Numbered from the stretch's first letter, positions 1 to 15,464 are shown. The stretch is 15,464 bases of DNA from a virus (IMGVR_UViG_2671180268_000006); one strand, 5' to 3'. The notes: a model not told the origin generated them from the letters alone. Made by a program: numbers and translations.

Positions 1-14
1 CTGTCCAATGTGCA

Positions 15-50
15 TAAAAAAATCCGGAAACAAGTGAGCGTTTCCGGATT
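15..50 (-). terminator. Candidate rho-independent terminator downstream of portal gene
   Basis: On the minus strand, hairpin TCCGGAAAC/GTTTCCGGA (plus 23-50) followed by a T-run (plus A-run 15-22), about 35 nt after the portal stop at 83-85. Not folded computationally. Confidence 0.4.
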
Positions 51-82
51 CTTACACAGCCACTGGATCGGTCAACTGATCC

Positions 83-1330
83 TTAACTGATCGGCATTAC
101 ACCACCGGGACGCGGATTCATATCTTCCAGGTCGCGGCAGTCATTGGAAGAGTAAATTCCCCAGTTGATCCCGGTGGCGTAGGCTTCAAAACGGGACTTC
201 ATATCCCCGCGCAGTAACGCCCCGGCGTTAAATTTGGCGTAATAAACGCCCTGCTTACTTTTTCGTACCAGTCCGGTGTTGATCCGCTGTTCGATGCGGG
301 TCAGATACGGCACCAGTGAATAGTTGATAAATCCCAGCCCCAGCTCTTCGATATTGTTGAAGGTGGCGCGATCGGTGTTCTGCACCATGTGCAACGGCAC
401 CCGGAACAGACGACAGATTTCTTCCAGCTGAAACTTGCGGGTTTCCAGGAACTGACTGTCCTCGGCGTTCAGCGCCATCGACTTCCAGTCCAGCCCCATT
501 TCCAGAATCATCGGGCGGTGAGCATTGCCAAGCCCCGTGTGACACTCCTCAAAATCTTTCTTCAGACGCTCGTAAGCATCCGGCGTGAGCTTTTGTTCCG
601 TACGCAACACACCGGATGTCACCGCACCATTACTAAACAACCTGGCACCGTGCTCCTCGGTTGCCGCTGCCAGTGAAATGGCCTCACGCGCATACGCAAT
701 GGGATTCAGCCCGACAAGTCCATCCAGCGTCAGGGTGCGCACATGCCAGATTTCATTCTGGGTCAACACATCCACGGAACCATCCGGAAACGTCACCTGA
801 TAAACCGGCTGCCACTGGCTGTTCAGCTTCGGTTCCACACAGCCCGGATCTATCGGAAGAAGCTCCACCACTTCTCCCAGTGCCTTTACCTTGTAGGCGT
901 AAAAATTCCCCCGTAGACACAGGCAGACAATAACCAGCTCCCAGAATTCCTGCGGTGTCATGTAGCCATTAGGTTTTGCCGAAACCAACTTATGCAGTCG
1001 TTCATCCACCGCCCGTGTTTTCAGGGTACCGCTGATTTTGTAGAGACTGCAGGGCAGCATACCAACAGACTCTGCCAGCACCCTGACGCAAGAATAGACC
1101 GCCGTCAGGCGCATGGCCCGCTGGCTACTGATCCGCTTTCCGGTATAGGTGTCGTATGACAGCCCGATAGCATCAGCAGTTCTGCTGGCGTGGTCACCGG
1201 CACATCGCTTTTTCGTTGAAATAATCCCGAAAAGAACACTATTTACCTCCGCCGACAGACTGCCGTGTACGGTCGAGATATCGCGCCACCAGCCACGACC
1301 AGAACAGGCACAGCGCCCCGGCAACAACAA
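83..1330 (-). CDS. Phage portal protein (HK97-like family)
   Basis: 415-aa ORF immediately downstream of the large terminase; [14 protein letters not shown]-type motif near the N-terminus and overall portal-like composition. Start is uncertain: the codon at 1330 is TTG, and no ATG/GTG/TTG lies between the end of the overlapping small ORF (1239) and the first internal ATG at 1114. Confidence 0.75.
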
Positions 1331-1421
1331 AACCCGCCGGGGGATAAATCAGCCAGGCACCATACGCCAGCAAAAGCGCACCCAGCACGCCCACCAGAGG
1401 CGCGAGAATCAGCATGATCAT
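1239..1421 (-). CDS. Small predicted membrane protein (two hydrophobic segments), function unknown
   Basis: 60-aa ORF with ATG start preceded by GAGG 5 nt upstream, placed 11 nt after the terminase stop. Product [49 protein letters not shown] is strongly hydrophobic. It overlaps the first 91 nt of the portal ORF in another frame. Confidence 0.45.
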
Positions 1422-1432
1422 AATTACCTCAG

Positions 1433-3166
1433 TTAAAGCGAGCGGATCCCGTAGGACTCAATGTGGTCAGACAGCGTGTCTTCTTTCTCGTACAGCATGG
1501 CTCTGCCAACCGCCATAATCAGCGCAACTGCACCATCGATTTTGTTTTCCGCCTGCTCTTTGACGGGTTTCACCACATCATCGTTACCCGGCATGTTTTT
1601 GCCGACCACGTTGCCGATACACCAGGTCATGATGGGATTGCCGTCATGATGAAAACGTCCCGATTCAATCGCTGCTTCCAGCTCTTTCATCGGATCGGAC
1701 ATATTGGTGAAGTTCTGGACGATAGTGACGGGATTCAGGTCTTCATCAGCAAGGTCATGTGACAACCCGGTCGCCCCGAAGGGGTCGATGGGTGACTCAC
1801 TGACCGGGCTGATTTTGTTCGCCGCTTTGGCCTCCTCGAGGATGTAGCGATAATCCACCTCCGCACCATCGGTAACGGTCAGAACGCCCATTTCCACCCA
1901 TTTCTGAAAGCGTTCGGCTGTCCGTCGATCTTCATTTTTCTCGACGCTGTACACCGTGTCATACGGTACCCAGAAACGCGGGGCCACACTGTAGTAATGC
2001 GTTTTACCGTCAATCTCGCGGGTATAAAGTCGCGCCATGCTGTTCATATCCAGCTTACGCGCCAGGTCAAAGGCCAGAATGCACGGCTGCCCCTCGAACT
2101 GCTCAAGGGTCAGTGATTTATCCTCGCAGCTCTGCCAGCTCACCAAGTTGAAATACGCCGAACGCGCCGACACCCAGATATTGAGGTGTTTTGTTTTAAA
2201 GACGTTTGCCAGACGGGCGTTATTTTTCGCACGCTGCTGCTGACTTAACAAAAATTCGCGATAAACCGACACGCCAATATTTGGATTGGCTTTTTCCAGC
2301 ACCTGCGGGCCGGTCCAGTCGTCACCTTCATCAACGGTATAGATGATCCCGAACAGTTCATCGTTAGGCACCGAGCCGTTGAGCATCTCGATGACTTCCC
2401 GCCGCTTGTCGTAGCACGGCCCCTCAATGTTGTACCCGGCGGTGGTGATGGCCCACATCAGTGGCTGACGTCGCGCCCCCATCCCGGTAAGCATTGTGGT
2501 ATAAAGCGCATCGGTGGCATGCTCGTGATATTCATCAACCACGGCACAGTGGGGTGATGAACCATCACCTGGGTTGCCGATCAGCGGTTCAAACCGCGCG
2601 CCATCCTCCGGACGGTTCATGTTTGAGGCGTTAACCTCAATCCCGAACGCTTCCGTCAGCATGGGTGTGCGTTTACACATCAGTCGCGCCGGGCGAAAGA
2701 CTTCCCACGCCTGTTTCTCTGTCGTGGCACCGGAATACACTTCCGCGCCAAACTCGTTATCACAGGCAAAACAATACAGGGCAACACCGGCAGAGATTGC
2801 TGATTTGCCGTTCTTACGGGGGATTTCGGTGTACACCTCCCGGAAGCGGCGCAACCGGGTGCCTTTATTGACCCAGCCAAACGCACAGCAGATCACAAAT
2901 AGCTGCCACGGCTCCAGCGTGATGGGCATCCGTTTGAATGCCCACTCCCCCTTGGTGTGCGGCAACAGCTGAATAAATTTCGCGGCCCGTTCAGCCAGGT
3001 CCTTGTCGAAGCGGTAACGAAACGACTTACTTTTTTCCGCCATCAGGTCATCAAGATGGCGCTGGCAGGCCTGAATCACAAACTGGCAGGCAACAATCTT
3101 TCCGCGCACGACATCCCGGGCATACTGATTTGCAGCATTTACGTTGGGGTAAGATTTCCGGCTCAT
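1433..3166 (-). CDS. Terminase large subunit
   Basis: 577-aa ORF with ATG start overlapping the small-subunit stop (ATGA). Size and position between small terminase and portal; family assignment is from recognition, not a search. Confidence 0.88.
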
Positions 3167-3657
3167 GATTCGATAATTTTCAGAAACGGGTTAGTGGCTT
3201 TCTTCTGCCCCGCCAGGCCAATCAGACGCTGGCGGCTGCTGGGGTCGAGTCCGAGCATTGCCCCCGTGCTGCTCATCTCGGACTCCTGTTCTTTTTTGGC
3301 GGTCAGCTCCGGATTTTTGACCCTGCCGCCCATTGCACCGGTGATGGTGTTGCCCTGTATGGCAATATTTTTCACGGCACGTCGCCAGAACTCATAGGCC
3401 ACGCACCACCGCTCAAGTACCGCCAGGTCAGTCACGCACAGCAGGCCCTGACCGCAGAGTTCTTTGGTTGTCAGTTGCCACATGATCGTGGCGAGAGGGA
3501 GATCTTCTTCAGCGAACCACTCTGGTGGCTCAACACCTTTGATGGGCGTAAAAACAGGTTCATCTTTGTTCAGGGCTCGCTTGCCGGGGTTTCCGGCCAG
3601 CGCCTTGCGCGCCGTTGGCTTGGGGCGACGCCCGGAACGCCCCGCCGTTCCAGCCAT
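3163..3657 (-). CDS. Terminase small subunit (P27-family-like)
   Basis: Track ORF 3163..3666 begins at GTG with no spacing from AGGAG; the ATG at 3657 sits 8 nt downstream of AGGAG, giving 164 aa. Basic N-terminus ([13 protein letters not shown]) and position directly upstream of terL. Confidence 0.8.
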
Positions 3658-3666
3658 ATGCGGCAC

Positions 3667-3778
3667 TCCTGGTTAAATTTCATTTTTCGCGGGTATAAAA
3701 AAACGATGGGGCGGGCAGTCCGGAAGACGTCAGGTCACAGGGATTTGCCCCGCCCCTCCCTACAAGTGAGAATAATTA
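3667..3778 (-). other. HNH-terS intergenic region with GC-rich inverted repeat; candidate cos site and/or terminator
   Basis: Plus 3708-3718 GGGGCGGGCAG and 3747-3756 GCCCCGCCCC form an imperfect inverted repeat, followed on the minus strand by a T-run (plus 3696-3703). In HK97-like phages cos lies between the HNH gene and terS. Inference only. Confidence 0.3.
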
Positions 3779-4129
3779 TCACCGGATTCGTTCGCGCGCT
3801 GTTTTCGCTTTATGGCAGGGCCAGCACAGACTCTGCAGGTTGCTGTCTGCGTCTGTTCCGCCATGCGCTTTCGGGATGATGTGGTCGACGGTTTTCGCCT
3901 CGCTCACCACACCGACACGCAGACACAACTGACACAGACCTTTATCGCGCTTCAGAATACGGGCACGAATCACCGTCCATTTTGAGCCATAGCCACGCTG
4001 GTGGCGGCTCAGTCCGCGCTGGTGCTGCACCCAGCCTTCACCGCGATGTTTATCGCAGTAACCCGAACTGTCTGTGGTTGTACCTGCACATCCACGCTTA
4101 CGGCAGGCACGTGGGATTAGTGATGGCAT
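3779..4129 (-). CDS. HNH endonuclease (terminase-associated)
   Basis: 116 aa, ATG with GAGG 6 nt upstream. Cys pairs (CRKRGC, CDKH) and DHIIPKAHGG...N...CWPCH motif typical of HNH nucleases; adjacent to terS as in HK97-like packaging modules. Confidence 0.85.
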   Translation of the reverse strand: MPSLIPRACRKRGCAGTTTDSSGYCDKHRGEGWVQHQRGLSRHQRGYGSKWTVIRARILKRDKGLCQLCLRVGVVSEAKTVDHIIPKAHGGTDADSNLQSLCWPCHKAKTARERIR

Positions 4130-4171
4130 AAATACCTCATACCCTGCGAAATGTTTACCACGATAAAAAGG

Positions 4172-4636
4172 CTACTTAATGCACTGAGTGCGGATATACT
4201 CCTGTGCCCCTTCCAGTTGCATCTGCATCGTCATCAGCCGCTCTCTGAGGGTGAAATAATCCCGTTCAGCGGTGTCTGCCAGTCGGGGGCTGGTTGCATT
4301 ATCCACGCCGGAGGCGGTGGTGGCTTCACGCACTGACTGACAGACTGCTTTGATGTGCAACCGACGACGACCAGCGGCAACATCAGCGCGCAGAGTTTCA
4401 TTTTCAGCTTTCGCATCAGCTAACTCCTTCGTGTATTTAGCATCGAGTGCATTAACATCACGCTGTCTCTGCTGCATGTCAGTAATGGTTGCGTTCGCCA
4501 GCTTCAGTTCTCTTGCGTTTTTGTCGCGCTGCTCTTTGTAGGTAATGGCGTTATCACGGTAATGATTAACAGCCCATGACAGGCAGACGATGATGCAGAT
4601 AACCAGAGCGGAGATAATCGCGGTGACTCTGCTCAT
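4172..4636 (-). CDS. Rz: Rz i-spanin
   Basis: Translation [34 protein letters not shown]... closely matches lambda Rz as I recall it; start ATG overlaps the R stop (ATGA). Track ORF starts 4 codons earlier at GTG. Confidence 0.9.
4234..4416 (-). CDS. Rz1: Rz1 o-spanin (lipoprotein) embedded in Rz in the +1 frame
   Basis: 60 aa, [38 protein letters not shown]...; lipobox LVVVGC and proline-rich stretch as in lambda Rz1; lies wholly inside Rz. Confidence 0.85.
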
Positions 4637-5130
4637 TGCTGCCCCCACAAACAGACTTCACGCTCAATCTCACGACGGGTCATCAGCCCTTTCCATTGCT
4701 TACCGCCAGCATATGTCCAGCGACATAGCTGGTCACATGCGCCTTTGATATAGCCCTGGTTTATTTTGCGAAGAAGCGTCGATGTTCTGAAATTGCCAGC
4801 GCCCACGTTGTAAACGAACGAGTAAAGAGCGCCGCGCGTTGTTTCCGGTATATCGACTTTGATGTACGGGTTAATTTGTCTGGCGACAGTGGCAAGGTCT
4901 TTATTCAGGAGGGCTTTGCATTCTGCTTCGGTATACGTTTTACCGAGCATGATGTCTTTTCCGGTGTGTCCGTGACATACAGTCCATACACCAATGATAT
5001 CTTTGTATGGTATGTAGCTGACACCTTCCAGACCATCGTTACCACCTGGGCCAGTGATTAACACAGATGCTATAGCAACAGCCCCACCACCAATAGCAGC
5101 TGCAACAGCCTTGCGTAATGATGGCGACAT
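4633..5130 (-). CDS. R: SAR endolysin (phage-21 R-like lysozyme)
   Basis: 165 aa; N-terminal Gly/Ala-rich weakly hydrophobic SAR-like segment ([20 protein letters not shown]) followed by a lysozyme-like domain. Start overlaps S stop (TAATG). Match to phage 21 R is from memory. Confidence 0.88.
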
Positions 5131-5345
5131 TATTCACCTCTCGCAGCCTTACGCTTGTCTTCTCTTATTTTGAAATACAGATTTGTCAGATAAGTCAGAA
5201 GCCCCAGAAGCAGACTTCCCAGCACACCAATCGCAGCCCACTGTGATGGACTGACCTGATCCAACCACTGCAAAAACCAGTAGCCGGCACTGCCGGCGGA
5301 GGTGCCGTAGGCAATGCCTGTTGATATTTTTTCCATCTGATACAT
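5130..5345 (-). CDS. S: Class II holin / pinholin (phage-21 S-like) with dual-start motif
   Basis: 71 aa, [53 protein letters not shown]...; two in-frame ATGs at codons 1 and 4 (5345 and 5336), matching the S21 antiholin/holin arrangement as I recall it. Confidence 0.88.
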
Positions 5346-5376
5346 ATCCCGCCCCCCGACAGACCTGTGCTATCGG

Positions 5377-5411
5377 AAAGAAAAAAGGCCATCAGCAAAA
5401 CTCTGATGGCC
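5377..5411 (-). terminator. Candidate rho-independent terminator upstream of S
   Basis: Minus-strand hairpin GGCCATCAG(8-nt loop)CTGATGGCC (plus 5387-5411) followed by TTTTTTCTTT (plus A-run 5378-5386). Q-modified polymerase would be expected to read through. Confidence 0.45.
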
Positions 5412-6025
5412 TGAATCACCTTTACCAATATTGTATGAAAAAACACGCACGACTAATTGACAATAATTTTCATTTCCATTAAAAAAGATCGCGTAGCATT
5501 CTTAATTCATGAGGAACTTTACCCGCCAGCAATCTGAGTAGCGAAAGCTGTTCATCCCCAATGTTTTTGCTGGCGGGTCCTTTTTTCTACGGTCCTCCTC
5601 CCCGGAGGGGGGCATTTCATTATTTTTCTAATCGTTACTGGTGAGAAGGCGGAAGAAAAAGCCAGTTCTTCGCCCCTAAATAACAGCATGATTCCAGTCC
5701 ATGCAAAATCTGATTTCCAGCTCACACATACCGAGCACTGTACAAAAAACCGCCAGCCAAGGCAGTTAAGAGTGTGTTCCCGGGGTTTGCTTAGAATATT
5801 TTGTAAGTTGTCCGAAGAGATATTTACAACACCAGAATGATGAATCATCAGTCCCCTGCCAGAGGTTCACTACGTAACCTGACCGACAATGCACCATTCT
5901 GGTGCTGAAAAAAGAGCACTGGAACTGCAACAAAACAACATCACAGAACAGGAGATGGTAAGGAGTCAGACATTCCCACACAATATTGTGTCAGTGCAAA
6001 TAACAACCTTCGTCTCAAATCTCGC

Positions 6026-6100
<75 letters not shown>

Positions 6101-6103
6101 ATA

Positions 6104-6179
<76 letters not shown>

Positions 6180-6181
6180 GC

Positions 6182-6258
6182 TGGCCCACCACCGAGGACT
6201 CGAACCTCGCACCGTCAACTTAGAAGGTTGATGCTCTATCCGGATGAGCTAGTGGTGG
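6182..6258 (-). tRNA. tRNA-Arg (anticodon UCU), atypical C1-G72 acceptor pair
   Basis: TAGCTCA D-arm, anticodon stem TCAAC/GTTGA, loop CTTCTAA, T-arm CGAGG-TTCGAGT-CCTCG, acceptor CCACCAC/GTGGTGG, discriminator G, CCA encoded. The 5' nucleotide is C, not the usual G. Confidence 0.78.
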
Positions 6259-6259
6259 T

Positions 6260-6336
6260 TGGTGGCCCTTGCTGGACTTGAACCAGCGACCTGGCGATTA
6301 TGAGTCGCTCGCTCTGACCAACTGAGCTAAAGGGCC
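6260..6336 (-). tRNA. tRNA with CAU anticodon, ileX-like (tRNA-Ile2 via lysidine, or elongator Met)
   Basis: GGCCCTTTAGCTCAGTTGGTCAGAGCGAGCGACTCATAATCGCCAGGTCGCTGGTTCAAGTCCAGCAAGGGCCACCA; acceptor GGCCCTT/AAGGGCC; anticodon loop CTCATAA. Similarity to E. coli ileX is from memory. Confidence 0.85.
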
Positions 6337-6525
6337 GGAGGCAGAATAATAACCATATGTCATCACATCTGCAAACTCATCTGACCACCAGCACGTTTAA
6401 CGTCCTGTGCCGTTTTTCAGGTATAAAAAAACCCGCTCATCGGCGGGTTTAAGCTGTGTGGCGTAGTAACCACTCTTAACAGGATATTCAACTTTTTACG
6501 ATCGTAAAGTTTTCGGAAAAAATTT

Positions 6526-7095
6526 TTAAAACCGCATCAACCGCTCCACCAGTTGCTCTTTACGGGCAACGATCCACCCGTGTTGCTCCAGATAAAATTT
6601 AAACCGTTCCAGAGTACATACCATCGCATCGGCGGGTACCTTTTCCGTGAACTCAACCTGACCGTGTTTATCGAAGTGGCTCAGTAATGCGCATCCATCA
6701 TTTTCGATAGATGTGTTTTGTGCCGCTGGTGGCTGTTTCTGGTTGAAATAACAGTCTTCCAGTTTTTCGAACACTTCCCACGCCTGATCGGTTTCGAGCA
6801 TTTTGGCGTGACGGGCTGCGCCACGTTCTGTCCAGAGGATGAGGGAGCGAACGTTACGGGCAATTTTCACAGAAACTCTTAAAGAGTTTTCGTTCTTCAA
6901 CTCTCGTAACGCATCACCTTCTATCAGGAAAAAATGTTTACCTTCTATAAACCGTTCTTTGTTTCGATTGAAATTGTTTGTCAAACGCTGGCGCTCTGTT
7001 CCGTACAAATCAGCCAGCAGCTCTGTTGTCATGACAGGAAGATGGTTATGCGTAAGTGACGGGAGTTTTTCAATAGACGTGCGATTCATAGACAT
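6526..7095 (-). CDS. ORF6N-like (Bro-N/antirepressor-like) domain phage protein, function unknown
   Basis: Track ORF 6526..7287, but the first ATG with an upstream AAAGGA is at 7095 (MSMNRTSIEKLPSLTHNHLPVMTTELLADLYGTERQRL...), about 189 aa. Domain name is from recognition of this N-terminal pattern, not a search. Confidence 0.65.
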   Translation of the reverse strand: MSMNRTSIEKLPSLTHNHLPVMTTELLADLYGTERQRLTNNFNRNKERFIEGKHFFLIEGDALRELKNENSLRVSVKIARNVRSLILWTERGAARHAKMLETDQAWEVFEKLEDCYFNQKQPPAAQNTSIENDGCALLSHFDKHGQVEFTEKVPADAMVCTLERFKFYLEQHGWIVARKEQLVERLMRF

Positions 7096-7448
7096 GTCCT
7101 TTCGAATATTTTGATTTACCCCTTTTGAGAGGGTGACCGGGCGCTCAAAACCGTCGAAAGTCGGCGGGCGTATTTCCATTGCTGGTATTGTATTAGCCGC
7201 ACACCCGGTCATAAACCAAGAATTCTGGACACAAAAAAACCACATGGCTATCGGGTGTGGATACCGCTTTCGAGGTGTTTTGAGCACCGCGGGGAAATGT
7301 AAACTGCAAACCTGAAACTGTCAACACCGTCAGGTTCCAATCATCGGGTGGTGAGACGCACAGGGTTGGAACTACCGGGAAACCGACCGGCGAGCTTTTC
7401 AGCTCCCCCATGCGCCCCACCATAATTCAGATGTGCGCGTGCATACGA

Positions 7449-7475
7449 CAATAAAAAACACGCTCGCGGCGTGTG
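7449..7475 (-). terminator. Candidate tR'-like terminator downstream of Q
   Basis: Minus strand CACGC-CGCGA-GCGTG hairpin (plus 7459-7473) followed by TTTTTTATT (plus A-run 7451-7458), about 60-70 nt downstream of the candidate pR'. Confidence 0.45.
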
Positions 7476-7535
7476 TCTGTCGCGGTCTCTATCCGGGGTT
7501 CCAATCCCGACGCCAGATTTTGCTGGCGCGTGAGG

Positions 7536-7565
7536 AATATAGCCCCGGACAATGTGTCTGGTCAA
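7536..7565 (-). promoter_or_regulatory. Candidate late promoter pR' (TTGACC-18 nt-TATATT)
   Basis: On the minus strand just after the Q stop (7570): -35 TTGACC (plus 7560-7565), 18-nt spacer, -10 TATATT (plus 7536-7541). Position matches the lambdoid Q/pR'/tR' arrangement. Confidence 0.4.
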
Positions 7566-7569
7566 GCAC

Positions 7570-7956
7570 CTACATAATTCGTTCTACGTATCTGTCCATC
7601 TCCAGCCGGATATCAAGCATCATCAACATGCCATCAATAACCCCTTCCGCTTTCTGCAGGCGCTTGCCAATACAGGTATCCGAACACCCATGTTTCCGTG
7701 CCAGACTCATAAAAGTCATTCCACCTACGTAATAATCCACCAGCAAATCGTGCAAATCCTGATTTTTCTTGTTCAACCGGGCCATACAGCCACAAATTAT
7801 CATTGCATCATCATCAGAACACTGAGGGCGTGATTTCACTTTCGACGGAATTAACCCTTTAAAACCAGCAGCGATCGACGCCCAGGATACATCTTCATGA
7901 GTGTTTGCAGCCCAAGCCCCCCACCGTTCCATAACCTGCTGAATATCACGCGCCAT
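7570..7956 (-). CDS. Q: Antitermination protein Q (82/21-type)
   Basis: [64 protein letters not shown]... is typical of the non-lambda Q family. Start chosen at ATG 7956 (AGGTGA 6 nt upstream); track ORF begins 7 codons earlier at 7977. Confidence 0.85.
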
Positions 7957-8317
7957 CGTTATCACCTGTGATTTCATAAATCTTCACGCCCAGTCGCCCA
8001 CCAGGAACGAGCTGACCGCGCACAATATTGATTTCATCAAACTGCTCGTCGTCTATGAGTAGTCCGGCATGCGTCAGCGCATCCAGTGGTGCTTTCAGGA
8101 TATTGTCCAGGTCACGACGGCGCTTATCCGGTGGCTCTGCAATAATCTTTATCGCCAGCCTTCCGGACAGGTTTAATTTCAGCCGCTGCTGGCGAACAAT
8201 TAGCGTCACATCACGGCGATAACGCTCACCAACTTTTGATACAAAATATGTGCTGCCACGACGTCGCCAGTAAGTATTCACCGTCGGCGGATAAGGTAAA
8301 ATAAACTCATGGCGCAT
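7946..8317 (-). CDS. rusA: RusA Holliday-junction resolvase
   Basis: 123 aa; [14 protein letters not shown]-terminus and [29 protein letters not shown] acidic catalytic region characteristic of RusA. Start overlaps the stop of the upstream 85-aa ORF. Confidence 0.9.
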
Positions 8318-8693
8318 CAGCGCAGCACCTCCTGCACCATTTTTTCAAACTTTCCAACTTTGGTTTCCAGCTCTGCCACACAATCAACGAGCTCATCCAC
8401 CGCTTTTTGTGCGCGATGTTTCGCCTGCATCAGTTCCCTGAGCGCTGGCACCATATCCCGACGAATGGCATCTTTTGTTACACCTGTTTTTTCCAGTTGT
8501 TCCGCCTGTCGCAACATTTCCTGCGCGTGTTTACGCAATTGTTCAGAGGTAAAAGTCATTGTCTGGTTGTTCAAAAGAAACGCTCCATCTTACTGCTGTC
8601 GGTACGTGTATTGCTGTATCTGCGCGGCTGGGGCTGCCGCATTGGGGTGGAAAGAACCTGTGCGCTTTCCTGGTCCACAGGCAGAAAATGTCC
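8211..8693 (-). repeat. Inverted repeat copy A (helicase 3' end, 85-aa gene, rusA 5' end)
   Basis: Reverse complement is highly similar to 12018..12500. Judged from aligned translations (helicase C-terminus ...SSKMERFF, about 6 substitutions in the 85-aa protein, first 35 RusA residues nearly identical). Exact identity not computed. Confidence 0.8.
8317..8574 (-). CDS. Conserved small phage protein with coiled-coil character, function unknown
   Basis: 85-aa ORF (MNNQTMTFTSEQLRKHAQEMLRQAEQLEKTG...). Track start at 8574 is TTG overlapping the helicase stop; the first ATG is at 8559. A near-identical copy lies at 12137..12394 on the plus strand. Confidence 0.6.
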   Translation of the reverse strand: MNNQTMTFTSEQLRKHAQEMLRQAEQLEKTGVTKDAIRRDMVPALRELMQAKHRAQKAVDELVDCVAELETKVGKFEKMVQEVLR

Positions 8694-9962
8694 GTTATAA
8701 AAACGCCGGTAAATCGTCCCCAGAGAACCGTTACGTTGTTTCGTGATATTAATTTCTGCTATGCCTGTAGCCTGTGTATCCGGGTTGTACACTTCATCCC
8801 TGTAAAGCATCAGAATGATGTCTGCATCCGCCTCTATTTCTCCGGAATTTTTCAGGTCTGAGTTCATGGGACGTTTATTGGGTCTGGACTCCACACCGCG
8901 GGAGAGCTGGCTCAGCGCAATCAACGGAAAACCACCGGATTTTGCCAGGCCTTTAAGCCCCTTTGAGATTTCACCCACGGCAAGGTCATGACGCCCCGTG
9001 GTTCGGGTTTTTATCAGCCCGAGATAATCAACCACCACCAGCGCCGTTTCCGGATGTTTAATCAGATGGTGTTTCGTTGTTGCGCATATCTCATCAATGG
9101 TCAGGTTCGCCTGGTCCACCATCCAGATATTGCGCCCGGTCATCCGCCCCACCCCTTGTGAGAAACGCGCCCAGTCTTCATCTTCAAAGTGAGCCACAGA
9201 TTTCAGGCGTGATACTGGCATCCCTCCAGCCGCAGACACCATACGTTCACCAATCTGGATGTTCGCCATCTCCATGGTGAACAGAAGCACACCATGCCCC
9301 TGCTCAGTCACCTTGTCGATGATGTCCAGCGCAAGTTCGGTTTTCCCCATCGAAGGACGGGCGGCAATGAATACCAGGTCTCCGGGCTCCATACCGCCTG
9401 TTTTTGCGTCCAGTTCATCAATACCGGTCATCAACGTCCTGGATTTCTCCAGCCCCTGATTCCGGCATTCAACACGCTCAACCACTTCCGGAAGCACATC
9501 ATCAATATGTACCGGCTGAATGACGCCCTTTCCTGTCGACAGTGTGACCATCATGTTCTGCGCATCCTTCAGGGCATCTTCAGCTGCTTCACAGGTATGC
9601 GCATCACGTAATTTCTGCAGCGCCTCATTCAGTGTTTTTTCTGCATCGCGCAGTGCGGCATTGCGCCGCAACGCTGCAACATAGTGCTCCAGTGAAGACT
9701 TCACCCAGGTTTTACGCCCGGTATCAGTAATCACCGGGGCAAGTTCCGGCATCTCATTACACAACAGCACGGGGTCAATCACTCCTGAAACACGGGCCTG
9801 TCTGCAGATGCCTGTGTAGATATCCCGATACGCTCGTACAGAAAAAATGTCCGCCGGTAGTGTGATCAGAATATCCATCACTTCATGATCTGCCCCACGC
9901 AGAAAGAATGCGCCAATGACAGCGCCTTCCAGGTCATCATTACGCCAGACTGGTGTTGTCAT
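8571..9962 (-). CDS. Replicative DNA helicase (DnaB-like)
   Basis: Start set at ATG 9962 (GAGGTG 8 nt upstream), 463 aa. Walker A region DLVFIAARPSMGKTELAL and later LSQLSRGVESRPNKRPMNSDL, EADADIILMLYRDEVY match DnaB-family motifs. The track ORF extends into IS2 and those 47 codons are not part of the gene. Confidence 0.85.
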   Translation of the reverse strand: MTTPVWRNDDLEGAVIGAFFLRGADHEVMDILITLPADIFSVRAYRDIYTGICRQARVSGVIDPVLLCNEMPELAPVITDTGRKTWVKSSLEHYVAALRRNAALRDAEKTLNEALQKLRDAHTCEAAEDALKDAQNMMVTLSTGKGVIQPVHIDDVLPEVVERVECRNQGLEKSRTLMTGIDELDAKTGGMEPGDLVFIAARPSMGKTELALDIIDKVTEQGHGVLLFTMEMANIQIGERMVSAAGGMPVSRLKSVAHFEDEDWARFSQGVGRMTGRNIWMVDQANLTIDEICATTKHHLIKHPETALVVVDYLGLIKTRTTGRHDLAVGEISKGLKGLAKSGGFPLIALSQLSRGVESRPNKRPMNSDLKNSGEIEADADIILMLYRDEVYNPDTQATGIAEINITKQRNGSLGTIYRRFYNGHFLPVDQESAQVLSTPMRQPQPRRYSNTRTDSSKMERFF

Positions 9963-10077
9963 GCAGCCACACCTCTGATACAAGAACGGTAGCTGGGCCA
10001 GTTGAACGACAACCAGTTGCGCCCCCCGTCTGTGATCCTGTCGGCAATGCGGGGGCTGATGAACGCTGGATTTGCCC

Positions 10078-10983
10078 CTATATTTCCAGACACCTGTTAT
10101 CACTTAACCCATTACTGGCTTGCTGCCGTAGATATTCCCGTGGCGAGCGATAACCCAGTGCACTATGCGGATGCCATTCGTTATAATGCTCGAACGCCTC
10201 TGCAAGGTTCTTTGCTGCCGTTAACCCGTCTGGTTTGGGCATGACACTGATGTAGTCACGCTTTATCGTTTTCACGAAGCTCTCTGCTATGCCGTTACTC
10301 TCCGGACTCCGCACCGCCGTGCTCTTCGGTTCAAGCCCCAACATCCGGGCAAACTGCCGTGTTTCATTAGCCCGGTAGCATGAACCATTATCCGTCAGCC
10401 ACTCTACTGGAGACGCCGGAAGCTCGTTGCCGAAGCGGCGTTCCACCGCTCCCAGCATGACGTCCTGTACTGTTTCACTGTTGAAGCCGCCCGTAGTGAC
10501 CGCCCAGTGCAGTGCCTCACGGTCACAGCAGTCCAGCGCGAACGTGACTCGCAGTTTTTCTCCGTTATCACAGCGGAACTCGAACCCGTCAGAGCACCAT
10601 CGCTGATTACTTTCTTTCACAGCCACTCTGCCTGTATGTGCCCGTTTCGATGGCGGTACAGCAGGTTTTCGCTCAAGCAACAGCGCATTCTGGCGCATGA
10701 TCCGGTAAACACGTTTGGCATTGATCGCAGGCATACCATCAAGTTCTGCCTGTCTGCGAAGCAGCGCCCATACCCGACGATAACCATACGTGGGCAGCTC
10801 TCCGATAACATGGTGTATACGGAGAAGCACATCCGTATCATCAGTGTGACGACTGTGGCGGCCATCCATCCAGTCATCGGTTCGTCTGAGAATGACGTGC
10901 AACTGCGCACGCGACACCCGGAGACAACGGCTGACTAAGCTTACTCCCCATCCCCGGGCAATAAGGGCGCGTGCGCTATCCAC
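10078..10983 (-). CDS. insD: IS2 transposase OrfB (InsD), normally made as InsCD fusion by -1 frameshift
   Basis: 301-aa ORF with rve/DDE-type integrase core (…WCSDGFEF…, …LTDNGSCY…, …ESNGIAESF…); overlaps orfA over 10941-10983 where the A6G slippery site sits. Confidence 0.85.
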
Positions 10984-11306
10984 TTTTTTGCCCGTCCATA
11001 TTCAACGGCTTCTTTGAGGAGTTCATTTTCCATCGTTTTCTTGCCGAGCAGGCGCTGGAGTTCTTTAATCTGCTTCATGGCGGCAGCAAGTTCAGAGGCA
11101 GGAACAACCTGTTCTCCGGCGGCGACAGCAGTAAGACTTCCTTCCTGGTATTGCTTACGCCAGAGAAATAACTGGCTGGCTGCTACACCATGTTGCCGGG
11201 CAACGAGGGAGACCGTCATCCCCGGTTCAAAGCTCTGCTGAACAATTGCGATCTTTTCCTGTGTGGTACGCCGTCTGCGTTTCTCCGGCCCTAAGACATC
11301 AATCAT
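10941..11306 (-). CDS. insC: IS2 OrfA (InsC)
   Basis: 121 aa from [41 protein letters not shown]... (helix-turn-helix region); track ORF starts 15 codons earlier at a non-ATG codon. Confidence 0.85.
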
Positions 11307-11397
11307 CTGTACTCCAATGACTAGTCTAAAAACTAGTATTAAGACTATCACTTATTTAAGTGATACTGGTTGTCTGGAGATTCAGGGGGCCAGTCTA

Positions 11398-11417
11398 NNN
11401 NNNNNNNNNNNNNNNNN
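11398..11417. other. Assembly gap (20 N)
   Basis: Run of 20 ambiguous bases starting immediately after the IS2 left end; the classic signature of a scaffold join at a repeat. Confidence 0.95.
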
Positions 11418-11514
11418 GAAGGGAAAGGGCCTTCCCGAGAGTGGTAAAGGAGAGGCCCTGGAAATACCCCACTCCCCCTCTGCCAACCCAATACAGATTT
11501 TAAAGATTATATAG

Positions 11515-11802
<288 letters not shown>

Positions 11803-11860
11803 CGAAAGTATTTAGCGGGCATGAAAATGGCAAATAACGGTCAAACATCGTGGCGTTGAC

Positions 11861-12016
11861 ACAATTGCGATCTTTTCCTGTGTGGTACGCCGTCTGCGTT
11901 TCTCCGGCCCTAAGACATCAATCATCTGTACTCCAATGACTAGTCTAAAAACTAGTATTAAGACTATCACTTATTTAAGTGATACTGGTTGTCTGGAGAT
12001 TCAGGGGGCCAGTCTA
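11861..12016 (-). mobile_element. IS2 left-end fragment (156 bp, same orientation as the complete copy)
   Basis: 11861-12016 is identical or near-identical by eye to 11242-11397 (IS2 left inverted repeat plus first ~21 codons of orfA), ending in the same ...GGGGGCCAGTCTA terminus. Confidence 0.8.
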
Positions 12017-12017
12017 C

Positions 12018-12140
12018 GGACATTTTCTGCCTGTGGACCAGGAAAGTGCACGGGTGCTTTCCACTCCCATGAAGCCCGGCAATCCGCGCAGATACAGTAA
12101 TAAACGAACTGACAGCAGTAAGATGGAGCGTTTCTTTTGA
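12018..12140 (+). pseudogene. 3' remnant of DnaB-like helicase gene (last ~40 codons), truncated by IS2 fragment
   Basis: In-frame translation GHFLPVDQESARVLSTPMKPGNPRRYSNKRTDSSKMERFF* parallels the C-terminus of the intact helicase at 8571..9962; the upstream part is replaced by IS2 sequence at 12016. Confidence 0.7.
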
Positions 12141-12394
12141 ACAACCAGACAATGACTTTTACCCCTGAACAATTGCGTAAACACGCGCAGGAAATGCTGC
12201 GTCATGCTGAACAACTCGAAAAAACGGGCATAACAAAAGACGCTATCCGTAAAGATATGGTACCCGCGCTTCGGGAACTGATGCAGGCGAAGCATCGCGC
12301 ACAGAAAGCAGTAGATGAGCTGGTGGACTGTGTGGCAGAGCTGGAAACCAGAGTCGGAAAGTTTGAAAAACTGGTGCAGGAGGTGCTGCGCTGA
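12137..12394 (+). CDS. Conserved small phage protein (second copy of the 85-aa coiled-coil protein)
   Basis: 85-aa ORF differing from the 8317..8574 product at about six positions; GGAG 8 nt upstream of the TTG at 12137, first ATG at 12152. Confidence 0.6.
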   Translation: MNNQTMTFTPEQLRKHAQEMLRHAEQLEKTGITKDAIRKDMVPALRELMQAKHRAQKAVDELVDCVAELETRVGKFEKLVQEVLR

Positions 12395-12500
12395 TGCGCC
12401 ATGAGTTTATTTTACCTTATCCGCCGACGGTGAATACTTACTGGCGACGTCGTGACAACACATATTTTGTATCAAAAGCCGGTGAGCGTTATCGCCGGGA
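12394..12500 (+). pseudogene. rusA 5' fragment (about 35 codons) joined to a Q gene
   Basis: [35 protein letters not shown] parallels the RusA N-terminus at 8317-8211, then diverges at an ambiguous base (n at 12501); the catalytic region is absent. Confidence 0.7.
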
Positions 12501-12513
12501 NGCAGGTCAAAAA

Positions 12514-13368
12514 ATGAAACTGGAAGATTTACCGAAATACTACTCCCCAAAATCCCCTTGCCTGACCGATGCATCGGCCTCAACGTCAAAAGATGCGCTG
12601 AGTATCACTGATGTGATGGCCGCGCAGGGCATGACACAGAATCGGGCTGAGATGGGGTTTTCTGCGTTCCTGGGGAAAATGGGCATCAGTATGAATGACA
12701 GGGCGCGGGCAACAGAATTACTGGCAGATTATGCACTCAGTCGGTGCGATCGTGTGGCGGCGTTGAGAAAACTTCCGGCAGAAATAAAACCGGTAGTGAT
12801 GCGCATTATGGCTTCGTACGCTTTTGAGGATTATGCCCGCAGCGCAGCGAGTAAAAAGCAGTGCCCTTGTTGCTATGGGGAAAAATTTATTGAAAGCGTA
12901 GTTTTTACAAACAAGGTCCAGTATCCGGATGGTAAGCCGCCGGTATGGGCAAAGTGTACGAAAGGTGTGTATCCGTCTTACTGGGAAGAATGGAAAAAAG
13001 TCAGGGAGGTGGTAAAAGTTGCCTGTCCGGAGTGTGGCGGAAAGGGTGAGGTTTCCACCGCCTGTAAGGATTGCCGTGGGCGTGGTGTCGCCATTCATCG
13101 TGAAGAGTCGGTAAAACGTGGTATGCCTGTTATCAGAGACTGCCAGCGTTGTGGTGGTCGTGGCTATGAAAGACTACCATCAACGGAGGCATTTAATGCT
13201 ATATGCGAGGTGACAAACCAGATAACACGCGCGTCATGGGAAAAAACAGTTAAGAAATTCTATGATGCGCTGGTGACTCGGTTTGATATTGAAGAAGCAT
13301 GGGCTGAGCGGCAGTTAAAAAAGGTAACTAGGTTGATTTTTCCGGAATCTGTGGTAAATTCGTCATAA
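12514..13368 (+). CDS. Q: Antitermination protein Q, lambda-type, with expanded Cys-rich (CxxCxGxG) region
   Basis: From ATG 12514: MKLEDLPKYYSPKSPCLTDASASTSKDALSITDVMAAQGM... parallels lambda Q (HSPKSP...DVMAAMGM, recalled from memory). Three CxxCxGxG-like motifs (CPECGGKG, CKDCRGRG, CQRCGGRG). 284 aa, longer than lambda Q; no strong SD upstream, so start is tentative. Confidence 0.72.
   Translation: MKLEDLPKYYSPKSPCLTDASASTSKDALSITDVMAAQGMTQNRAEMGFSAFLGKMGISMNDRARATELLADYALSRCDRVAALRKLPAEIKPVVMRIMASYAFEDYARSAASKKQCPCCYGEKFIESVVFTNKVQYPDGKPPVWAKCTKGVYPSYWEEWKKVREVVKVACPECGGKGEVSTACKDCRGRGVAIHREESVKRGMPVIRDCQRCGGRGYERLPSTEAFNAICEVTNQITRASWEKTVKKFYDALVTRFDIEEAWAERQLKKVTRLIFPESVVNSS
13333..13360 (+). 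promoter_or_regulatory. Candidate pR'-like promoter overlapping the Q 3' end (TTGATT-16 nt-TAAATT)
   Basis: -35 TTGATT at 13333-13338, 16-nt spacer, -10 TAAATT at 13355-13360, just before the Q stop (13366-13368). Pattern only. Confidence 0.3.
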
Positions 13369-13407
13369 CTATGGGCGTTTTATGCCTGACGTTAGAAGAG
13401 TTTCTAC

Positions 13408-13434
13408 AACCCGCCGCCGAGCGGGTTTTTTATT
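13408..13434 (+). terminator. Rho-independent terminator downstream of Q (tR'-like)
   Basis: AACCCGC-CGCCGA-GCGGGTT hairpin followed by TTTTTTATT, about 40 nt after the Q stop. Confidence 0.55.
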
Positions 13435-13470
13435 GCGGAATTAATTACGGACCGTTATTATTCTGCTCCC

Positions 13471-13546
13471 GGCCCTTTAGCTCAGTGGTGAGAGCGAGCG
13501 ACTCATAATCGCCAGGTCGCTGGTTCAAATCCAGCAAGGGCCACCA
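13471..13546 (+). tRNA. tRNA with CAU anticodon, ileX/ileZ-like (tRNA-Ile2 or Met)
   Basis: GGCCCTTTAGCTCAGTGGTGAGAGCGAGCGACTCATAATCGCCAGGTCGCTGGTTCAAATCCAGCAAGGGCCACCA; acceptor GGCCCTT/AAGGGCC, anticodon loop CTCATAA, CCA encoded. Differs at a few positions from the 6260..6336 copy. Confidence 0.85.
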
Positions 13547-13646
13547 TCACAAACCGCCATTAGCTTATCAGGAAGAGCAGACGACACGATAACAGGGTTG
13601 TTGGTGCGGGGGCGGGTCCCCGATGGCGGTCCATTATCGGTATTCA

Positions 13647-13723
13647 GCGTTGTTAGCTCAGCCGGACAGAGCAATTGCCTTCTAAGCAATCGGTCACTGG
13701 TTCGAATCCAGTACAGCGCGCCA
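13647..13723 (+). tRNA. tRNA-Arg (anticodon UCU)
   Basis: GCGTTGTTAGCTCAGCCGGACAGAGCAATTGCCTTCTAAGCAATCGGTCACTGGTTCGAATCCAGTACAGCGCGCCA; acceptor GCGTTGT/ACAGCGC (one G-U), anticodon loop CTTCTAA, T-loop GGTTCGAATCC. Confidence 0.85.
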
Positions 13724-13860
13724 TATTCATTCTTCCAGATTCCTTCCGGCAGAGCCTTATACTGAAATATACCTGGCTCAGGATATTGTTGAAAATATTT
13801 TATGTTTGTCAAAAATAAAAGTTCTGTTAAGTATTGATTGAGTGTTTGTTATACGGTCTA

Positions 13861-14187
13861 ATGGTTTTTTCAGCATTAAATATTTATCATTCATATGGTG
13901 TGGGTAGAGTGAATATTGATGAGGCGTCGGGGTGTTTCATCCTTAGGCAGCGTATTGATATAGTCAATGCAGCACGAGCAAAGGCCTTCAGCCGTTTGAC
14001 AGTTTTGTTCTGTACTCCTGATCGTCTTTCGGGAAGAGACGTTATTATTCTGAATAGTGATGCTATACAGAGGGTTTGCGATGAGTTCATGGTTGCTAAT
14101 TCAGAATTATTTGCTCTTGTTCAGGAGTACAACAGAATAGCCAGGACCTGTGGTATGGATGAACTTCGGATTACTCATCTGGGGTAG
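13861..14187 (+). CDS. Hypothetical protein in AT-rich cargo island, function unknown
   Basis: Track ORF 13834..14187 starts at TTG; first ATG at 13861 gives 108 aa (MVFSALNIYHSYGVGRVNIDEASGCFILRQRIDIVNAARAKAFSRL...). No recognisable motif and weak SD; coding status uncertain. Confidence 0.4.
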   Translation: MVFSALNIYHSYGVGRVNIDEASGCFILRQRIDIVNAARAKAFSRLTVLFCTPDRLSGRDVIILNSDAIQRVCDEFMVANSELFALVQEYNRIARTCGMDELRITHLG

Positions 14188-14222
14188 ATACATATCTGGA
14201 TTATCACCTGTTACGGTAAAAA

Positions 14223-14354
14223 GTGATTGCTTACTGTTTTTGTGAATGGCATTGCAGCAGCCGGATAATGTCAGTGCTGGCTGACGGTGTGCTGGTGGCG
14301 GGTGTGGTGGTTGTTGCTTTCCCGTTGCTGAAAAAGAAAACGCCAGACTGTTAG
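14223..14354 (+). CDS. Candidate small hydrophobic peptide (28 aa from ATG 14268, 43 aa from GTG 14223)
   Basis: ATG at 14268: MSVLADGVLVAGVVVVAFPLLKKKTPDC*, a single hydrophobic stretch with a polybasic tail. Weak SD (GCCGGA). Highly speculative. Confidence 0.2.
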   Translation: MIAYCFCEWHCSSRIMSVLADGVLVAGVVVVAFPLLKKKTPDC

Positions 14355-14578
14355 CCGGGTATCAGTTAGCGGGAGAAATTTTTAAATACTTCACAATTCA
14401 GGCGGTTGACTGTTGTCTGGTTTGCGGGGAGTTTGTTAAAAGAAACTGGCATGGTGAATCCCCCTGTGCGGAGGGGCAATCAGCGAGTAGGTATATGGGA
14501 TAATCGCGGATTCAGGTGCTGGTACTGAATTCACCGGGAGGCACCCGGCACCATGCAATGGCACATAGCGCCACTCTC

Positions 14579-14614
14579 CAGCCCCTCTCCGGAGGGGCTG
14601 TTTATATTGATTTT
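14579..14614 (+). terminator. Rho-independent terminator in cargo island
   Basis: CAGCCCCT-CTCCGG-AGGGGCTG hairpin followed by TTTATATTGATTTT on the plus strand; on the minus strand the same hairpin has no T-run after it. Confidence 0.5.
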
Positions 14615-14634
14615 GTCAGATGTGAGTAAACTCC

Positions 14635-14970
14635 TTATGGACTTTGTTGTTTTAGTCCATAAGGACATATTTGCAGAGTGCAACGGTTATTAAAGCATTC
14701 ATTCAATACGTTATCTGTATTTGTAGGGCATTCCTGGCTATTTTTGATTGAATTCCAGAATGTTTTATTGAATGGTACTACGTTGTAAATGGTTACAGGT
14801 AGCACTTTGTTATTGAGCATGATGCCTGTGTGAGTCAGTGTAAATATACTTTCAGGAGGTAAGAAAGCATCCGATTGATACCAGATTATTAATTTTATTT
14901 TACTCCATATGACTGAAAAAGATATTCCGCATGATGGCTGGATAACTGTATCAATCACAATCCACTTCAT
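14635..14970 (-). CDS. Hypothetical low-GC protein (111 aa), function unknown
   Basis: ATG start with AAGGAAAC 5-6 nt upstream; markedly AT-rich with several Cys residues near the C-terminus; no obvious signal peptide. Convergent with the 108-aa ORF. Confidence 0.55.
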
Positions 14971-15230
14971 TTAGTTTCCTTGTTTATGCCTTGCTGGTGA
15001 TGTTCTGAAAAGTATAAATGATATTTTTGAATGTAAACCATAGAGCAGAATTATTTTTCTGATGTTGTTTATTGTTTATTTAAATGCAGGGTGGTTTATA
15101 TCTCGTCTTGTAGTTTATCCATGCATATCTGCTTGATAATCAGGTTTTTATTTAAGGTATGGTTTTGTGTTTTTTCTGTATTACATGTCAGGTATTTTAA
15201 AGAATTATTTTTCAGATGGTGGAAAGAACC

Positions 15231-15404
15231 ATGGCATTTAAACACTATGATGTTGTCAGGGCGGCGCCGCCGTCAGATCTTGCGGAAAAGCTGACACATA
15301 AACTGAAAGAGGGCTGGCAGCCGTTTGGTAGTCCGGTGGCCATAACCCCTTATACCCTGAGGTGTACTGGCAATAGCGGACACTACCATTTGTTCTTTTT
15401 TTAA
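15231..15404 (+). CDS. Small phage protein, function unknown
   Basis: Track ORF 15216..15404; second ATG at 15231 has GGAAAG upstream, giving MAFKHYDVVRAAPPSDLAEKLTHKLKEGWQPFGSPVAITPYTLRCTGNSGHYHLFFF (57 aa). I could not confirm a family name. Confidence 0.45.
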   Translation: MAFKHYDVVRAAPPSDLAEKLTHKLKEGWQPFGSPVAITPYTLRCTGNSGHYHLFFF

Positions 15405-15464
15405 GCAGCCATCTGATGATATTTTTCCCTGAAGGCTGCCGGGGAGATATTCCCCAGACGAGAG

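Follow-up and report, generated by a model that had tools for sequence, protein, structure and literature searches.

The genome of Shigella sonnei carries many insertion sequences (IS), some 45 elements of the IS2 group and some 50 of IS21 being tabulated per genome in the study of strain FC1653 (PMC6836418). For 299 S. sonnei isolates assembled with a Velvet+SSPACE+GapFiller pipeline the mean was 405 contigs, and greedy tools were stated to be of a kind that "can lead to false joins" (PMC5320598). With GapFiller, a gap counts as closed once its two extensions share an overlap of 10 nt or more (PMC3446322). The stretch considered here, called the window throughout, is the entire 15,464-bp draft record CWVV01000102.1 of assembly GCA_001250815.1, a short-read draft of S. 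sonnei. An earlier reading, made from the sequence alone (the sequence-only reading), had described two lambdoid prophage segments standing head-to-head around IS2, with an inverted repeat of some 483 bp, and had held an IS2- or homology-mediated inversion and a scaffold artefact to be equally likely. The present analysis does not uphold this equality: the artefact is strongly favoured and the inversion is not supported. Very probably, the head-to-head arrangement is a scaffolding misjoin through the multi-copy IS2, which brought together two genuine, unlinked prophage remnants. The reasons are that the remnants are separated by about 1.6 Mb in finished genomes and have one and the same orientation there, that an N gap at the end of IS2 is followed by chimeric filler, and that the right-hand contig has other, unrelated partners in sibling assemblies.

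Two runs of N divide the window into three contigs, called A, B and C. The elements around the joins are as follows.

1-11397, minus strand: contig A, prophage remnant 1 and IS2 (S. sonnei locus 1, by BLAST against L013, L014 and L015)
10067-11397, minus strand: complete IS2 of 1331 bp, right end at 10067, left end at 11397 abutting the Ns (Pfam HTH_Tnp_1, HTH_21, rve, rve_3)
11398-11417, no strand: scaffold gap of 20 N, the join of contigs A and B
11418-12500: contig B
11418-11513, plus strand: chimeric filler of 96 nt (sources IS4, an IncI1-plasmid gene and IS21)
11514-11860, plus strand: 3' end of IS21, with the C-terminal 94 codons of istB and the right terminal repeat ...GGCGTTGACA (PF01695 IstB_IS21)
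11861-12016, minus strand: IS2 left-end stub of 156 nt, from the locus-2 IS2 that IS21 interrupts, with 100% identity to 11242-11397
12501, no strand: single N, the join of contigs B and C, replacing 252 bp of rusA(2) (window 12500 and 12502 correspond to L006 10349 and 10602)
12502-15464, plus strand: contig C, prophage remnant 2 continued (Q, tRNAs, DUF3927, IraM/PmrD-like, DUF1737), 100% identical to L006

Each remnant contains a gene of 80 aa, and finished chromosomes with both loci were retrieved through exact-protein look-ups of these two genes. In local BLAST comparisons, window 1-11397 is collinear with locus 1 at 99.9% identity (L013, L014 and L015, which are CP037997.1, AKNE01000059.1 and CP022459.1, respectively). 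Over window 11514-12500 the identity to locus 2 (L005, L006 and L007) is 100%, and it is also 100% over 12502-15464, which match this locus at L006 10602-13564, that is, 252 bp further along. In CP037997.1, the 4,807,231-bp chromosome of S. sonnei FC1653 (PMC6836418), the two 80-aa genes are found at ca 2.66 and 4.27 Mb, and in CP022459.1 at ca 1.51 and 4.71 Mb. The loci are separated by 1.59-1.61 Mb in these two chromosomes, and in each of them both genes lie on one strand. The two modules are thus distant direct repeats in the finished chromosomes, not adjacent inverted ones.

The sequences flanking the two loci were also compared. Past the left end of IS2, locus 1 continues with GCAACTAAAGCACTGCC..., inside a gene of 459 aa, in three finished or long-contig references and in a 53G-type draft; this flank within the 459-aa gene reads GCAACTAAAGC.... 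The window differs from the finished genomes at this point and has other sequence after the Ns. The unrearranged locus 2 consists of the IS2 body, a full IS21 (istA, istB), the 156-nt IS2 stub, the truncated helicase gene helicase'(2), the 80-aa gene, rusA and Q, and it is present in this form in all 11 of the finished or megabase-scale chromosomes, namely CP037997.1, CP022459.1, CP041322.1 (S. sonnei; PMC8209639) and eight others of more than 4 Mb. Remnant 1 is bordered by the right end of the full IS2, and remnant 2 by the left end of another IS2, which inserted into the helicase gene of this remnant and was later split by IS21. The marks of a scaffold misjoin are thus all present, with Ns at a repeat boundary, two sides that are non-adjacent in finished genomes, and a repeat shared by the joined ends.

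In a collection of 5,426 complete Escherichia coli genomes, which does not include Shigella, megablast found none with at least 80% of the window, a megablast with junction probes found no junction of IS2 with helicase', and 11418-11503 had no near match. The junction of the window is shared by none of these 5,426 genomes, the 11 S. sonnei-type chromosomes or the sibling scaffolds described below.

An alternative that has to be considered is a real, isolate-specific inversion of about 1.6 Mb, caused by homologous recombination between the IS2 of locus 1 and the inverted IS2 body of locus 2, the one that is split by IS21 within the helicase gene. The product would be helicase(1) - IS2 (to about 11195) - IS21 - 156-nt stub - helicase'(2), with the N gap hiding the 5' 1.7 kb of IS21. 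The two IS2 copies are, as deduced for their orientation, inverted relative to each other in the finished chromosomes, and an exchange between them would therefore place the modules head-to-head in exactly the observed order. The tens of IS2 copies in S. sonnei also speak for such an event. However, the parental locus 2 is retained in every one of the finished or megabase-scale chromosomes, and window 11196-11397 stays intact IS2, including about 45 nt that are absent from locus 2, rather than entering IS21. In view of these points, and of the junction sequence, the sibling scaffolds and the IS2 polymorphisms considered below, we regard the inversion as unlikely.

Turning to the join itself, a genuine inversion would be expected to show an uninterrupted junction sequence. 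What is found instead is the gap of 20 N, correctly placed between the segments by the sequence-only reading, followed by 96 nt that are a chimera of three sources. Positions 11418-11472 are an exact 55-nt piece from the interior of the IS4 transposase gene, 11462-11524 match exactly, over 63 nt, the interior of a coding sequence beside excA on IncI1-type plasmids, including the S. sonnei plasmid CP022458.1 (36022-36084), and from 11514 the sequence is the interior of IS21 istB. The source switches at exact 11-nt words common to the adjoining sources, AAATACCCCAC and GCCGATGAACA. None of the finished locus-2 sequences or sibling scaffolds contains the 96-nt filler, and IS21 simply continues in them at this place. 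Judged from this composition, the 96 nt after the gap are non-biological, which is a further argument against the inversion.

Another option considered was that the filler is a real nested IS junction. This was rejected, as neither switch falls at an IS terminus and all three pieces are gene interiors; the exact shared words of 11 nt and the absence from finished genomes and siblings also rule it out. The IncI1-type piece was identified in the plasmid collection and not in the scan of species-representative genomes. In an exact scan of the latter, the 36-nt core of the filler had a sole match, in the 626-nt contig JQCU01000477.1 (150-185) labelled Acinetobacter idrijaensis MII, which could be due to contamination or to a shared plasmid. 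The exact 63-nt fragment of a plasmid gene embedded in the filler suggests that the isolate also carried an IncI1-type plasmid, with reads leaking into the gap filling.

Directly after the filler, 11514-11860 is 99.4% identical to annotated IS21 and 100% identical to L005-L007. The window contains the last 347 nt of IS21, and the finished genomes have the full istA-istB at locus 2. The truncation of IS21 in the window appears thus to be the start of a contig and not biology.

Further evidence comes from two assemblies of a neighbouring accession series, which share the right-hand contig with the interior of IS21, the 156-nt stub, helicase'(2), the 80-aa gene and the following genes. In the first of these, CWTF01000002.1 (L029; join at 9972, rusA N run 10980-11229), the partner of the contig is a set of pdu/BMC (bacterial microcompartment) genes, joined via a complete IS2 and 1 N. 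In the second, CWTK01000006.1 (L030; N run 9741-9990), it is an AIDA/pertactin-type autotransporter, joined via a complete IS2 and 250 N. In both siblings the partner stands to the left of the contig, and the IS2 is complete up to its left terminus. The outer flanks of the three scaffolds, that is, the window and the two siblings, are mutually unrelated, and the IS2-mediated joins of the siblings are probably misjoins too. One artefact mechanism accounts for the three partners as against 11 consistent chromosomes, whereas a real inversion, with like joins to other partners in two siblings, needs three independent recombinations at one IS2.

The polymorphisms of the IS2 copy next to the gap were then typed. 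IS2, a member of the IS3 family, was defined by a length of 1331 bp, terminal inverted repeats and a pair of overlapping open reading frames (orfA with HTH_Tnp_1 and orfB with an rve domain), and the window copy is such an element, with 99.7% identity to the RefSeq "IS3-like element IS2 family transposase". It is identical to the locus-1 copy over 10067-11123 and differs from all four locus-1 references at 11124, 11289, 11310, 11311, 11355 and 11356, all of them in the last 275 nt. The base at 11124 is that of the IS2 body of locus 2, and those at the five positions 11289-11356 are the bases of the locus-2 stub. The copy is a hybrid, with the last locus-1 single-nucleotide polymorphism (SNP) at 10856, the first locus-2 or common one at 11124, and a SNP-free stretch of 267 nt between them.

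A hybrid of this kind, locus-specific near the unique flank and of "consensus" type deeper in the element, is the expected product of repeat collapse, here over the 267-nt SNP-free stretch. The IS2 of L030 is also a hybrid, with the switch near the opposite end. The IS2 of L029 is identical to the locus-2 type over 1,129 nt, and the locus-2 type is therefore the common IS2 variant.

We have also considered real adjacency by other routes, either a crossover in the 156-nt left end of IS2, leading to helicase(1) - single IS2 - helicase'(2), or a rearrangement associated with IS2 transposition, with the gap hiding an insert. The last 156 nt of the full IS2 do match the locus-2 stub, and not the locus-1 references, at the five positions 11289-11356. 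However, 11124, which is outside the stub, is also non-locus-1, and helicase'(2) is still preceded by its parental IS21-stub, 100% identical to the finished genomes. A crossover within the stub was rejected on these two grounds, and since the objections from finished genomes and sibling scaffolds hold here as they do for the inversion, we find adjacency by any such route very improbable.

The scaffolding misjoin most probably came about in the following way. Contig A, anchored upstream of helicase(1), would have been extended through IS2 to its left terminus with reads from many IS2 copies, which would explain the hybrid SNP pattern. The final 156 nt of contig A would thereby have become identical to the IS2 stub inside contig B. 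Next, read pairs with one mate in the stub and the other in helicase'(2) would have linked the end of contig A to contig B in the observed orientation, and gap filling would have left 20 Ns together with the 96-nt chimera, the pieces of which meet at 11-nt overlaps. The single N at 12501 would be a second gap, of wrong size, which took up 252 bp of rusA and so fixed the apparent end of the repeat.

It has to be pointed out that several considerations weigh against the misjoin. The switch of SNP type from 10856 to 11124, from locus 1 to locus 2 or common, is also what a real crossover between the locus-1 IS2 and the IS2 body of locus 2 would give. IS-mediated inversions are common in Shigella. 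Furthermore, the role of the read pairs is deduced from the assembled sequence, and the link of the record to software of the Velvet+SSPACE+GapFiller type is presumed. Finally, the finished genomes are those of other isolates, although a rearrangement private to the source isolate is improbable.

The inverted repeat and the genes in and around it are listed here.

8211-8695, minus strand: inverted-repeat arm 1, with the 3' end of helicase(1), the 80-aa gene and the 5' end of rusA(1) (from the alignment)
12016-12500, plus strand: inverted-repeat arm 2, with the last 41 codons of helicase(2) (12018-12141), the 80-aa gene (12152-12394) and the first 107 nt of rusA(2) (12394-12500); 100% identical to finished locus 2
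8571-9962, minus strand: DnaB-like replicative helicase of remnant 1, 463 aa, intact (PF03796 DnaB_C, E=7.8e-73; phrog_19)
8317-8559, minus strand: 80-aa gene, copy 1, phage protein of an unknown-function family (phrog_2565, E=3.6e-30)
7946-8317, minus strand: rusA(1), complete, 123 aa (PF05866 RusA; phrog_34)
7570-7977: Q antiterminator of remnant 1 (PF06530)
12514-13368, plus strand: Q antiterminator of remnant 2, 284 aa (PF03589 type)

Exact alignment of the two arms gives an ungapped inverted repeat of 485 nt with 434/485 identical positions (89.5%) and a longest exact run of 83 nt, a match far beyond chance. The proposed repeat of about 483 bp, with high but imperfect identity, is thereby confirmed. 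Its content was also described correctly, as both arms hold, in opposite orientation, the last 41 codons of the DnaB-like helicase, the 80-aa gene and the first 107 nt of rusA. The 80-aa gene has the previously given length of 85 aa if it is started at an upstream TTG, and the two copies are identical at 75/80 residues. Against Pfam the 80-aa protein had no family, and PHROGs gave the unknown-function family alone.

The statement that both copies of the repeat end at IS2 termini in the same orientation holds only in part. The two IS2 copies do have the same orientation, the full element at 10067-11397 and the stub at 11861-12016 being 100% identical over 156 nt, and copy 2 of the repeat does end at IS2. 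Copy 1 does not: helicase(1) extends another 1.27 kb, as far as 9962, and the right end of IS2, at 10067, stands 1.37 kb from the repeat end of arm 1. The single N at 12501, the IS21 3' fragment at 11514-11860 and the 96-nt filler at 11418-11513 had been overlooked.

Both limits of the "483-bp" repeat are imposed, one by the IS2 insertion and the other by the assembly gap. Namely, arm 1 stops at 8695 only because IS2 cuts copy 2 there, and the other limit is set by the single N at 12501. When the hidden 252 bp are restored, the homology between locus 1 and locus 2 amounts to 722 nt at 89.3% identity, reaches window 7977 and includes the whole of rusA. It then stops at the transition from rusA to Q, the Q genes of the two remnants being of unrelated families (PF06530 vs PF03589), and this end of the homology is an ordinary lambdoid mosaic boundary.

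The single N keeps the reading frame and creates a 324-aa RusA(1-35)-X-Q fusion at 12394-13368. In the public protein collection the exact fusion protein comes from one contig only, CWVV01000102.1, and it is an artefact of the single N. The corresponding place in rusA is a run of 250 N in L029, a complete rusA in L030 and 1 N in the window. The boundary at 12500 was also considered as a mosaic junction or as a real rusA deletion, and both were rejected, since the 252 bp are present in all finished genomes and in L030 and are replaced by 250 N in L029. We infer that contigs B and C are rightly placed side by side, and that the size of the gap between them is badly wrong.

Real IS events have taken place at each of the two loci. 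At locus 1, IS2 stands upstream of the helicase gene, ca 100 nt from its start, in a place that is occupied in intact relatives by a gene for a DnaC-like loader. No 5-bp target-site duplication is found at this IS2, the flanks being AACGC (window 10062-10066) and GCAAC (finished genomes, L013 ca 7159-7163). This lack of a duplication indicates an old IS2-associated deletion or rearrangement, which would have removed the early region of remnant 1 and is common to all S. sonnei genomes examined. At locus 2 of the finished genomes, IS2 interrupts helicase(2) as an insertion and has the 5-bp duplication CGGAC on both sides; beyond it there are 41 nt more of helicase(2) and then another IS end (TTAAACTCAGGCTACCTCA). 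In this locus (L005-L007, ca 6516-9865) the two parts of IS2 lack some 45 nt between them, the counterpart of window 11196-11241, and the IS21 event appears for this reason not to have been a simple insertion.

That the window contains two different lambdoid prophage segments, as had been claimed, is borne out by the different Q families and by the different downstream modules. The gene content of contig A is portal, terminase, HNH, lysis cassette, tRNAs, ORF6N protein, Q, rusA, the 80-aa gene and helicase, which on the minus strand is the full lambdoid order helicase - nin genes including rusA - Q - tRNAs - lysis - terminase/portal. Remnant 2 follows the same lambdoid order with helicase' - 80 aa - rusA - Q - tRNAs.

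Beyond Q, a prophage tRNA cluster is found at 6026-6336 (minus strand; Gly-Thr-Arg-Met(CAT)) in remnant 1 and at 13471-13723 (plus strand; Met(CAT)-Arg) in remnant 2. Because both remnants have such clusters, shorter inverted repeats are present at 6260-6374 and 13433-13546. The homologous CAT-anticodon tRNA in L001 is tRNA-Ile according to RefSeq and Met according to ARAGORN. At the other end of remnant 2, the last 110 nt of the window (15355-15464) match a repeat elsewhere in the locus-2 region of the finished genomes (L005 5215-5324), and the end of the record is on this ground probably another repeat boundary.

The inverted prophage juxtaposition is thus best classed as not a real feature, and all of its components, that is, IS2, IS21, the lambdoid modules, the prophage tRNAs and prophage decay, are already well known. 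The pieces are ordinary for S. sonnei, with degraded lambdoid prophages, a shared nin-region module of 89% identity and many IS2 and IS21 elements. If the inversion were true, the remnants would be head-to-head with a scaffold gap hiding most of IS21, and the adjacency would merely be another IS-mediated inversion in a genus known for such events. Caution is needed, as the public record and the spurious 324-aa RusA'-Q protein would mislead analyses of prophage structure, IS rearrangement or synteny.

Compared with the mosaic replication/nin/Q modules of lambdoid phages in E. coli and Shigella, both remnants have the same succession of a DnaB-like helicase, a phrog_2565 gene, RusA and Q, followed by tRNAs, and their homology is sharply bounded at rusA/Q, where the Q families differ. 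There is nothing unusual in this respect, both remnants being degraded and cut by IS elements. The IS-driven rearrangement and prophage decay known from S. sonnei is recognized in the IS2 in the helicase gene and the IS21 inside that IS2 at locus 2, and in the IS2 without duplication at locus 1. The difference is that these real IS events are common to all S. sonnei genomes examined and do not make the head-to-head arrangement. With the repeat-mediated misjoins of greedy tools of the SSPACE/GapFiller type, the comparison differs in that the use of such software for the present record is presumed. The likeness is otherwise close: the join falls exactly at the end of a multi-copy IS, it is marked by Ns, its flanks are distant in finished genomes, the overlaps in the filler lie just above the documented threshold of 10 nt, and the siblings have different partners.

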